A stretch of 64,000 bases of DNA. Origin: a virus (lineage: Duplodnaviria; Heunggongvirae; Uroviricota; Caudoviricetes). The DNA lies in the IMG/VR virus record IMGVR_UViG_2877962823_000010; one strand, given 5' to 3'. Shown piece after piece: positions 42,001-45,000 of this stretch; the stretch's first letter is position 1, and every line of letters begins with the position of its first letter. The position numbers are program-made.

Positions 42001-45000
42001 GCCATATCGGCTGAACCTCAGCAACCAGTTGACGGGGACTCTCGTCCCCGTCGCGGTTTTCCTACTGCTTACACTGTAAGAACGCCGCAAACTCCGCTCC
42101 CCACAAATTCAGCCGGAACTCACACAGTGAACCGTGCAACATCCAGATGGTGAAGATAACCGTCATGCAAATTGTGACGGTGATAAGCGATTTTTGCGAC
42201 ATAGCGCTTGACTCCTTTTACAGAGAGGCGCTAACCTTCTACTTGCTTAAGGTACGAAGTGTTAGGGCCTCGGGTTAACGTTAAGTTGACTCGGGGCCTT
42301 TCCACATCAGGCCTTCAGGTTCACCCTCCAGCCATCAGCCGAAAGGCACCCACGCATAATTTACGGTTTTTGCCCTGTACGGGCAATAAAAAACCCGCCA
42401 TCACAGCGGGTAGTAAACGGTTACCGGATACAGGTCAGAATTTCAGGCCAATGCCAGCAGTAACGCCACTCGTGCGCCAGTCGCCAGAGCCGGAACCTTC
42501 GTAAGCCACATCCAGTGTAACACTCTCATTCAGGTTAAACTGTGCACCTGCAGCCCACGCAAGGGAGGTTTTTTTCGTGCTGTTGCTTTCAGAAAATCCG
42601 CCACTACTGTTAATATTGTCCTTAATTTTCAGGTCAGCGCTAACTTTAGCAACGCCCATCCCTGCCATCGCATATAAACTCATGTACTGATTAACCCGCC
42701 ATGAAGGCCCCGCTAACAGACTCCAGTAATTCGCCCTGATATCCGTTCTGGCAGAAGCTGCCGGATTCTTAATCTTCCTGGTATGATCGGCTGACTGCAC
42801 ATCAATAAATGTCTGTGAGTTAGTGAGAGAACGCGTCCATGTAAAAGAGGTGATAACGCCAAAATCATCCGTTATCTCGTAGCGATACCTGATATTAATG
42901 CCCTGTGGATTTTTATCCTTGCCTTCATATCCACTGACCCGACCATCTGTATATTCGCCCAATGAAGAAAAGTAGTTTCTGTTGACGAAATGACTGAAAG
43001 TCTCCCTGTTATGAGCAGTCGCATCCTTTACAAAATCCTTCAGTCCCGGAAACTGAAAGTGCGCATACCCCAGAGAAATTGTATGCTCTCCTTCTGCTGC
43101 ATGTGCAGATAAATTTACACAGGCAATCCCGGAGATTGCACACACAACCAGTGTTGCTATACTCTTCATTTAAGATATCCTGTATTCAGATAACACGCTA
43201 AACTTTTTAATAATACATCTTTTTAGACATTTTAAATGAATATTAAAGACTCGCTTCAACTAATCATATACTGATGTATTAATAACCAGGACCTTATCTA
43301 TATACGGCTTTCGAATATCCCATGTTGCACCACCGGAATAATGCTCACAGGAATATATTTTATTTCCTGTAGCACCAGTGGATGTGGTATAAATCGGTCG
43401 ATCATAAGGAGTTCTTTTCCAGTTATAATACCCGACCAGTGCAGGCATGATTGCGCATGGATATCCAAGGTCCTTTTCAAATTTGATATCAACAGGTATT
43501 AACTTCGCGTCAAGCAGCATCATTTCGCCATGATAAATCATCTCACCGTCCGGGTTATACATGGCGATACCATACTCAGAAGGTGGAGTAACCATATTCG
43601 CGAAAGCATAAACCGTCGTAACACCAGGGTTCGTTCCCCTGACAATTACATGAAGCCTTAGTGCATGATATCCATCAATCTGTTCATGCGTGTACATGAC
43701 ATCGGCCTTCTTCTCTGTTCTGATAAAGAAAAAACAACTTTTGCCTGACGGGATTGATGTTTTAAAAAAAGACTTTTCAGTCGCCGGTATGGTGCCTTTG
43801 TTGATCAGACACTGCGGCGTAAAACCTGGACTTATCCATACGCTGCCATCCGGCTTCATAATGCTCAAACCGTACATAACACTTATCCCCAGAATGTATA
43901 AATATAAGATCCCATACCCTGCTCAAGATTCGACCACGTCACCGTATTGTCATTAATGGTTATCTTCGGTACTTTCCGATCCGCAAATACATTATTCCAG
44001 GGAAATAAACAACATACAGCCTGCAATGATTTCCCGTCGGGTTTATTAGTGTACGTCTTTGAGCCAGACTCCGCTGTAAATCTGTCCAGGAAAAATACTG
44101 GAGTCAGCACGCCCGTAACATTAACGTTATTTCTGTTATAAATGGCAAAACCGTATTCCAATACTCACCTCCTGATCAGCGTAATCTGCCTATGCGAACA
44201 GCCAGTCGTCCATTCTGGTCATAAACCTCAATTTTATCATTGCGGATCACCAGTCCTACATTCTGATTAGAGTAACGAATTGTCAGTTGCCCTTGTGACG
44301 TAACACTGAAAAGGCCTCCAATATTCAGGTTACCCTGAGAATCAACCTGAAAGTTTCCGTTCTGAATAACGGCACTCCGGATAACTGGCGAAGTGATACT
44401 TACCCCGGCTTTTACCTCATCCGCCACAACCTTCCGCGACACCAGTGTTTCAATCACCGCGTCATAAATCATCGCTTTCGGGATCACTACCTTGCCACCT
44501 GATACCGCAAACGGATAGGCTGTGTTATCCGGATTATTCGGGTCAAAGACAAACAACTGCGACGCAGAAATTGCAACCTGACTTACAGGCCTGCCTTCAC
44601 TGTCTTTTCCGGCGACAATCCCGATCCCCGCAGTGATACCATCAACTCCCGCTTTTTTTGACCACATTGCAAGAAAAGCTTCACCGCCTTCTTTATCCAA
44701 TTTAGTGATGCGCTTGTCGACCTCATTAAGCGATTCACTGGTTGACGAATCCAGTGTGCTAATGCGGGTTTCAATACCACCAATCGTTCTTGTCGTTTCT
44801 TCCCTGAGAGTCCCTACAACTTCGGTTGTCTTAATTGCAGCATCCTTTACAGCCTGCCCCTGCGCGTTTTTTATTTCTTTACGCAGCTCGGACACAACCG
44901 GCGACTTTGCAGCCTCATCGCGGATCTGGTCAATGATGGCCTTCACGCCGATCTGTGTTTGTGCCTGAGTGCCTTTTTCAGCATTCCATGGACCTTTCAC

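Follow-up and report, generated by a model that had tools for sequence, protein, structure and literature searches.

This work concerns a short segment of a 64,000-nt stretch of phage DNA (Caudoviricetes; IMG/VR record IMGVR_UViG_2877962823_000010), hereafter called the window, in which an open reading frame (ORF) of the Hok toxin family lies on the minus strand between the outer-membrane protein gene lom and the homologue of gene L0129. A preliminary description, made from the sequence alone, had noticed this ORF as a second, unannotated hok gene. We have considered it together with its promoter, its leader and the RNA predicted on the opposite strand, which as a whole resemble the hok/sok toxin-antitoxin system of plasmid R1. 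The region is 100% identical to phage 933W, to VT2-Sakai/Sp5 and to many other short-tailed Shiga-toxin (Stx) phages, and positions 42006..42434 are identical to the lom-ECs1237 interval of the Escherichia coli O157:H7 Sakai prophage Sp5, where ECs_1236 is lom and ECs_1237 the L0129 homologue.

The toxin gene and its conservation

The toxin gene and the features just upstream of it are as follows.

42062..42202, minus strand: hok toxin ORF, ATG start, 46 codons plus stop, translation MSQKSLITVTICMTVIFTIWMLHGSLCEFRLNLWGAEFAAFLQCKQ
42212..42217, minus strand: Shine-Dalgarno sequence AAGGAG of hok, 9 nt 5' of the ATG, read from the sequence
42393..42411, minus strand: lom terminator (hairpin plus T-run), between lom and the hok promoter
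42435..43169, minus strand: lom, Ail/Lom outer-membrane protein (Pfam Ail_Lom, 113 bits), a separate accessory gene

We could confirm that the 46-codon ORF is a genuine Hok/Gef family gene, although the gene itself is not new. Its product matches Pfam HOK_GEF (PF01848) with 33.2 bits against a cut-off of 22 (E 4e-8) and PHROG 251, 'MokW-like host killing', with 85.8 bits. The peptide has a hydrophobic helix at its N-terminus and two cysteines in its C-terminal part. The good Shine-Dalgarno sequence and the Hok motifs claimed in the preliminary description are thus borne out, as is the position of the gene directly after lom and its terminator, 232 nt downstream of lom and past the hairpin and T-run at 42411..42393. 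The label 'HokA-like' stands in a weaker sense: HokA is the nearest NCBIfam model (NF007290) and hence the best-scoring named Hok subfamily, but the score of 38.4 bits lies below the equivalog cut-off of 89, so that the peptide is HokA-like and not a HokA orthologue. It shares the C-terminal EFAAFL.CK motif with chromosomal E. coli HokA, whereas the relatives of the tail-cluster hok are found on mobile elements, namely Stx phages, P2-like prophages and the urease island. Hok-family peptides insert in the inner membrane and collapse membrane potential and ATP, and by analogy with them the 46-residue peptide would be toxic.

The term 'unannotated' proved correct for the older records, since no feature is given at the ORF in AF125520 (933W), HM208303 (phi24B) or NC_002695.2 (Sakai). 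On the other hand, in E. coli genomes of RefSeq it carries the name 'Hok/Gef family protein', assigned by the Prokaryotic Genome Annotation Pipeline (PGAP), the locus being matched in 1674 of 5426 complete genomes, and in several phage records it is entered as 'host toxic membrane protein', 'small toxic polypeptide' or 'MokW-like host killing'.

The ORF is conserved and under purifying selection. Across the diversity of the module, which we drew from IMG/VR, it was found in 45 of 49 distinct copies, of which 44 have 46 codons and a single one (L057) has 45; in the remaining four its start was missed by the pattern search. The frame, whose decay in relatives would have spoken against a functional gene, is therefore intact in all 45 modules scored. 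Among 19 Stx-phage variants, all encoding the identical peptide, each of the ten variable ORF sites is synonymous. Identity to the peptide of the window is 74-76% in P2-type copies and 50% in the urease-island copy, and 20 of the 46 positions, both cysteines among them, are invariant across these contexts.

Module limits and the island around lom

Beyond the ORF, the locus comprises the following larger units.

42386..41997, minus strand: hok/sok-type module, about 375-390 nt, its limits given by homology in the alignment across contexts
42358..42386, minus strand: predicted hok promoter (-35 TTGCCC at 42386..42381, 17-nt spacer, -10 TAAATT at 42363..42358, start near G42351)
41982..44175, minus strand: accessory island of L0126, L0127, lom and the hok module, flanked by the tail-tip fibre gene and the L0129 homologue

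Homology among the lom-linked, ogr-linked and urease-island copies begins at ATTGC[CG]-N18-TA[AGC]ATT and stops exactly at GGCACCC (42003..41997). Two of these contexts are free of lom, the right end of P2-like prophages just after ogr and a site beside the urease island, and because the same limits recur in all three we consider the module to be autonomous and mobile. It is also present, with the ORF intact, in Salmonella and E. albertii, and the Sakai prophages Sp5 and Sp15 each have a copy. A scan of GTDB species representatives returned six loci, three of them in contigs labelled as non-enteric that are probably contamination. Near-identical copies were seen in contigs labelled Xanthomonas pisi (L010, 857 bp), a Planococcaceae metagenome-assembled genome (L011, 4.2 kb) and Vagococcus sp. 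(L013, 226 kb), contamination being the likely cause for the short ones. Separately, the P2-type copy of E. coli MB06101 (L009:1352-2644) carries an insertion sequence (IS) with an integrase-core transposase between the leader and the hok ORF, which cuts the toxin gene off from promoter, leader and antisense gene and represents a natural disruption of the module.

The preliminary description had paired hok with lom in a single moron, read from an AT-rich, promoter-like region upstream of lom and inserted as a unit among the structural genes. Indeed, in every record of a short-tailed Stx phage that was examined the two genes lie side by side in the same orientation, the region in question (43170..43259) is AT-rich (G+C content 0.35-0.36), and both genes are absent from a syntenic Aeromonas phage, phiARM81mr. 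In the latter, nothing separates the tail-tip fibre gene from the L0129 homologue, after which come those of L0130-L0134, and no counterpart of L0126, L0127, lom or hok is found in the syntenic region. An accessory insert inside the structural cluster is therefore real, yet it corresponds to an island of ~2.2 kb and four genes (41982..44175), which besides lom and hok also holds L0126 and L0127. A relative lacking it does exist, but it is a distant one: no close Stx-phage relative without the lom-hok insert was found, and the module seems to be universal among close Stx-phage relatives in the phage collection, where hok is matched in 198 records and L0129 in 187 (the two lists being counted separately). 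Further evidence speaks against a joint unit. The promoter scan gave no sigma-70 match on the lom strand in 43170..43259, so that the proposed region is AT-rich without a consensus promoter; lom-free copies keep identical limits; and the G+C content, 0.35-0.44 over L0126-lom (~0.44 for lom), is ~0.50 over the hok module. Since a terminator lies between lom and hok and hok has its own promoter, we conclude that the two are neighbours in an accessory island rather than one unit, and that their insertion as a single moron is unlikely.

The island nevertheless shares features with lambda-type morons such as lom and bor, in that it is accessory among late genes, absent from the gene order of a syntenic relative and outside the essential set of Sp5, as ECs1234-1237 do not belong to the nine ORFs of the late region that Sp5 was found to need for infectivity (PMC5155283). 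The hok module differs from them in not forming one promoter-terminator unit with lom and in being an RNA-regulated two-strand unit, mobile between element types, instead of a simple promoter-gene-terminator cassette.

Predicted hok mRNA and antisense RNA

The transcripts of the module, and the known system of the same window with which we compared them, are listed below.

41997..42351, minus strand: predicted full-length hok mRNA (~355 nt), in which the 5' element 42351..42335 pairs with the 3' element 42014..41997
42281..42307, minus strand: short leader ORF, a mok remnant or equivalent (AUG at 42307, 8 codons)
42031..42052, minus strand: hairpin just after the hok stop codon, from the fold and from compensatory double changes
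42208..42237, plus strand: antisense promoter, the published p24B_1 (-35 TTGACT at 42208..42213, 18-nt spacer, -10 TAACCT at 42232..42237)
42245..42303, plus strand: predicted Sok-type RNA, with a 5' tail of ~19 nt, a 16-bp hairpin (42264..42300) and then UUUCC; fold -31.3 kcal/mol
42383..42435, plus strand: EcOnc53, an Hfq-crosslinked antisense peak over the lom terminator and the adjoining A-rich stretch
29078..29402, plus strand: hokW-sokW locus (Rfam sok, 113.5 bits; 51-aa RelF-like Hok; experimentally characterised)

In plasmid R1, the paradigm of type I toxin-antitoxin systems established by Gerdes and co-workers (summaries in PMC8621323 and PMC5488031), hok/sok consists of a small membrane toxin made from a stable mRNA whose 5' and 3' ends are locked together and which adopts an alternative 5' pairing after 3' trimming, while the mok frame couples Sok control to hok translation. 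The sense transcript of our locus behaves similarly in silico. Folded from G42351 to 41996, it has a minimum free energy of -155.4 kcal/mol (z = -6.6). In this fold nt 1-17 form a helix with nt 338-355, the ribosome-binding site (RBS) is closed by pairing of its GGAG with CUCU just upstream (probability of being unpaired 0.01), and the hok AUG pairs with a box inside the ORF. Removal of the last 34 nt in silico lets the 5' end re-pair with nt 47-59 (GGAAAGGCCCC), opens the antisense-target hairpin and raises the unpaired probability of the RBS from 0.01 to 0.31. The same alternative 5' helix was given independently by RNAalifold on 46 distinct sequences. In this alignment the hairpin after the stop codon shows compensatory double changes at two pairs, in 19 and 25 of the 46 sequences, and the GGGUGCC/GGCACCC part of the 5'/3' helix is paired in 45 or all 46 at each position. 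A tac-fbi-like locking of the ends and an alternative 5' pairing are thus reproduced by the folds, which predict a refolding switch as in the R1 hok mRNA.

The predicted 3' end of this transcript meets the next gene. The P2-type and urease-island copies have a rho-independent terminator behind their 3' pairing element. The start of L0129/ECs1237, also on the minus strand, differs among records, being either ATG 42005 (133 aa) or ATG 41981 (125 aa, preceded by GGTGAGAG), and the upstream one of these falls within the 3' pairing element of the hok mRNA.

As for the leader, its AUG is conserved, with a frame of 10, 15, 17, 19, 21, 22, 24 or 61 codons in other variants. A conserved mok frame was considered and rejected, given lengths ranging from 8 to 61 codons and an overlap with hok in only 6 of 49 variants. 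Since the frame length varies and the overlap is rare, translational coupling through mok, as in the R1 paradigm, is not conserved in this subfamily.

On the opposite strand, we found a cis-antisense gene directed against the leader, with its promoter over the hok translation-start region. Its -10, TAACCT, is invariant in the 46 sequences. The hairpin is far more stable on the antisense than on the sense strand (-26.5 versus -11.9 kcal/mol), because its G-U pairs become A-C mismatches on the latter. Indels in the upper stem make covariation uncountable per column, and strand-specific folding energies were used for this reason; the same asymmetry appeared in all 15 distinct variants, which argues that the structure is selected on the antisense strand.

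The closest known counterpart lies in the same window. The locus at 29078..29402 corresponds, by primers and peptide length, to the hokW-sokW of Takada et al. 2021 (PMC8621323), and the claim that the phage carries two divergent hok paralogs at two loci is therefore upheld, the peptides encoded here and at 42062..42202 on the minus strand being 37% identical over 35 residues. At the place homologous to the tail-cluster antisense promoter, the sokW promoter reads TTGCCT, a 17-nt spacer and TAACCT; it is this TAACCT that Takada et al. mutated (primer YO-421) to silence sokW (PMC8621323). The two loci further share Pfam HOK_GEF and PHROG 251, an antisense -35 over the hok Shine-Dalgarno region, a predicted antisense RNA with 5' tail, long hairpin and U-tail, and a link to Hfq. 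They differ in that hokW encodes 51 residues with an intact, in-frame upstream frame, compared with 46 residues and an 8-codon leader frame here; in their Rfam scores (113.5 bits, above gathering, versus 35.6); and in location, hokW-sokW lying in the early/regulatory region and the other locus, a putative toxin-antitoxin pair, in the tail-gene cluster. With R1 hok/sok our locus has in common the predicted 5'/3' pairing, the alternative 5' pairing, a cis-antisense RNA against the leader (not against the hok Shine-Dalgarno sequence itself) and an antisense promoter overlapping the hok translation-start region. It differs from R1 in having neither a hok-overlapping mok nor a terminator after the 3' element, and in residing in a phage structural region instead of a plasmid.

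Considering these results, we find it highly probable that 42386..41997 on the minus strand, after the lom terminator, is a complete and autonomous hok/sok-type type I toxin-antitoxin module, whose antisense RNA is the antitoxin and also the precursor of an RNA published as 24B_1 (see below). In our model, the hok mRNA (~355 nt) would be made from its own weak promoter in an inert form, with its 5' and 3' ends paired, its RBS paired and its start codon paired with the downstream box. Trimming of the 3' end would allow the 5' end to re-pair with nt 47-59, so as to open the antisense-target hairpin and loosen the RBS. The antisense RNA, started near 42245 on the plus strand from TTGACT-18-TAACCT and complementary to nt ~49-107 of the leader, would act as antitoxin by triggering RNase III cleavage and/or by blocking the short leader ORF. 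By analogy with hokW-sokW, the module is likely to serve in retaining the prophage or in modulating lysis and the energy state of the cell upon induction.

Several observations weigh against this reading. At the gathering threshold, Rfam gave no match at the 42062..42202 locus in a search of the whole window. The check proposed in the preliminary description succeeded only in a permissive search (701 nt), where positions 1-157 of the sok model RF01794, its full length, aligned to 42351..42189 on the minus strand, ending at the hok AUG, with an E value of 2.6e-6. This full-length match favours the module, but its score is 35.6 bits against a gathering cut-off of 59. The sigma-70 scan placed both the hok and the antisense promoter below its consensus threshold, and our promoter calls therefore rest on conservation and on homology to the sokW promoter. 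In the window the mok frame is broken, the leader ORF having 8 codons and stopping 78 nt before the hok AUG, and in the Stx-phage copies no terminator was found after the 3' element, the L0129 gene following directly. In the second part of the 5'/3' helix we saw one-sided G-C to G-U changes only and no double compensatory change; as the changes in this helix are invariant or one-sided, comparative support for it is weak. The ORF is also absent from the lists of a Sakai ribosome-profiling study of intergenic small genes and of its 15 supplements.

The Hfq data speak partly for expression of the module. Tree et al. 2014 (PMC4104026) ranked the ECs1236...ECs1237 region 65th among Hfq-crosslinked intergenic regions, with sense/antisense reads of 6697/5519, 24/227, 10190/5289, 9056/5515 and 843/0 in five samples. 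However, their orphan peak EcOnc53 was not seen on a northern blot (Tree et al., PMC4104026), and its peak lies ~80 nt past the predicted antisense hairpin. Transcription of the antisense RNA may therefore continue past its weak U-tract, and EcOnc53 could be the 3' part of such a read-through Sok-type RNA.

Part of this evidence would fit a decaying relic, in which no toxin is made while the antisense RNA and the leader persist, perhaps reused as a regulatory RNA. The shortening of mok to 8 codons, the missing terminator in Stx-phage copies, the low Rfam sok score, the absence from ribosome-profiling lists and the IS-disrupted copy of L009 all point in this direction. A relic would not be expected, however, to show only synonymous changes at its ten variable ORF sites, nor to keep the frame intact in every variant scored, in three contexts and in Salmonella and E. 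albertii. The Shine-Dalgarno sequence, start codon and promoter are invariant and the 5' and 3' elements conserved. Moreover, mok length varies in all lineages, and thus its loss is not specific to a dying copy. We consequently regard a relic as improbable.

Mapping of 24B_1 onto the module

The published RNA and the constructs made to study it map to the window as follows.

42276..42295, plus strand: 24B_1 20-mer, an exact and single match in the window, in the loop and 3' arm of the antisense hairpin
42214..42402: equivalent of the 189-nt 'delta-24B_1' deletion of phi24B, mapped by the published primer arms
41949..42514: equivalent of the pUC18_24B1 insert, mapped by the published primers, comprising the entire module including the toxin ORF

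A 20-nt RNA, TAACGTTAAGTTGACTCGGG, was read 2223 times by Nejman-Falenczyk et al. 2015 (PMC4426718), 80 min after phi24B had been induced; they assigned this RNA, 24B_1, to 'the lom-vb_24B_43 region', with predicted promoter boxes TTGACT and CGCTAACCT (PMC4426718). These boxes are those of our antisense promoter at 42208..42237 on the plus strand, and the published promoter is the positional homologue of that of sokW. In the phi24B record (HM208303) the 20-mer occurs at 45692..45711 on the strand opposite lom, and an unannotated ORF at 45784..45924 encodes a Hok peptide identical to that of the window. An antisense RNA, whose absence would have counted against the module, has thus been published from exactly this place without being recognised as Sok-like. 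From the sequence correspondence, the antisense RNA of the module appears to be the source of 24B_1, which is itself most likely a Sok-type antitoxin RNA; the 20-nt species would be a stable fragment of the antisense hairpin.

The constructs bear directly on what the published phenotypes mean. With the delta-24B_1 deletion the phage loses, besides the antisense RNA and its -10, the hok promoter together with the whole leader, most of the Shine-Dalgarno sequence and half of the lom terminator, and it keeps a promoterless hok ORF. The plasmid used for complementation and overproduction is described in a 2023 paper (PMC10732415) as bearing 'the 189-nt region', while by our mapping it carries the whole module. 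Since deletion and plasmid remove or restore an entire hok/sok unit, the phenotypes cannot be assigned to the 20-mer. Those ascribed to 24B_1 are changes in lysogenisation efficiency, induction speed, burst size and survival after infection, and an ATP drop described as a 'Warburg-like switch'. ATP is lower with the locus on a plasmid or in the prophage, and Hfq binds an in vitro 24B_1 precursor with a dissociation constant of 25 nM (both PMC10732415). The ATP drop is consistent with a membrane toxin, given that the plasmid carries the whole module. We therefore propose, tentatively and as a possibility that falls a little short of even, that 24B_1 is a fragment of a Sok-type antitoxin and that its phenotypes arise wholly or largely from removing or over-dosing a Hok toxin/antitoxin module in the tail-gene region.

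Our locus and that of the 24B_1 papers are the same DNA, and 20-mer, promoter boxes, deletion and plasmid all map to the module; what differs is that these papers (PMC4426718, PMC10732415) regard the interval as intergenic and see in the RNA an analogue of microRNAs that acts in trans. According to them, 24B_1 would be an independent, microRNA-like regulator (of d_ant, the S region and sdhB) from the non-coding lom-vb_24B_43 interval, to which a Hok-like ORF is irrelevant. Complementation of the deletion phenotypes in trans (PMC4426718) favours this view, as do the opposite effects of overproduction and the proposed pairing with sdhB (PMC10732415). Yet the interval is not non-coding, as it holds the Hok ORF; the deletion also takes away the hok promoter, leader and Shine-Dalgarno sequence, and the lom terminator by half; complementation and overproduction relied on a plasmid that contains the complete toxin-antitoxin module; and the 20-mer corresponds to the loop and 3' arm of a hairpin that resembles a terminator and has a homologue in sokW. 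We hence consider an independent regulator to be very unlikely, although the two views are only partly exclusive, because a Sok RNA could still have extra trans targets. The terms hok, sok and toxin-antitoxin are unmentioned in PMC4426718, in PMC10732415 and in a 2025 review repeating the microRNA reading. No searchable paper links 24B_1 to hok, sok or an antitoxin, and the sole paper containing both '24B_1' and 'hok' is a mini-review by the same group, which treats them as unrelated topics.

With regard to the phage ant gene, we observed that Rfam matches to the C4 antisense RNA, its c4-a1b1 target and IsrK occur together at 8597..8795 on the minus strand. C4 is the P1/P7- and Gifsy-type antisense control of antirepressor genes. 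The C4 system is a candidate regulator of ant, better established than the proposed 24B_1-d_ant pairing.

Several other features of the window were noted. An IS3-family element of 1310 bp is present in two copies that are 99.9% identical (45927..47236 and 6892..8201), with ORFs of 108 and 296 aa; an ALIL frameshift pseudoknot (Rfam) lies in each, at 46262 and 7227. Through the insertion at 45927, the homologue of 933W L0124 / Sp5 ECs1232 is interrupted and falls into two pieces, 45441..45914 and 47234..48457. As ECs1232 was found by Mondal et al. to be essential for tail formation, the prophage, in this copy, may not yield infectious particles; polarity of the element may likewise keep late read-through from reaching lom and hok. 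Positions 1..6572 recur at 57430..64000 with 99.985% identity and one gap, at a spacing of ~57.43 kb, which could reflect a near-identical prophage segment in tandem or nearby, or else a record that is wrapped or has terminal redundancy. In the early region there is a direct repeat of 453 bp with 95.8% identity (21082..21534 and 27661..28112). Rfam also matched sRNA-Xcc1 at 26368..26456 (plus strand, 69 bits) and the lambda cIII thermoregulator at 18004..18062 (plus strand, 88.5 bits).

The gene described here is in itself ordinary, as mobile elements commonly carry toxins of the Hok family and the 46-codon ORF already has a name from annotation pipelines. The value of our analysis lies instead in placing 24B_1, its promoter, its deletion and its plasmid on a hok/sok-type module, which allows a simpler reading of that literature. 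Because the deletion and the plasmid remove or restore an unrecognised toxin-antitoxin module, the mechanistic conclusions of the 24B_1 papers need separation-of-function controls, and the reported ATP drop has a simpler candidate cause in a membrane toxin. The subfamily, lacking a conserved mok, also offers a natural case for studying how Sok may control Hok without translational coupling. Finally, Stx phages of the 933W/Sp5/phi24B group carry two different Hok systems, of which only hokW-sokW, which changes phage release, has been studied. If the phenotypes of 24B_1 are indeed due to the Hok module, two separate Hok systems would act on lysis and energy state in these phages.

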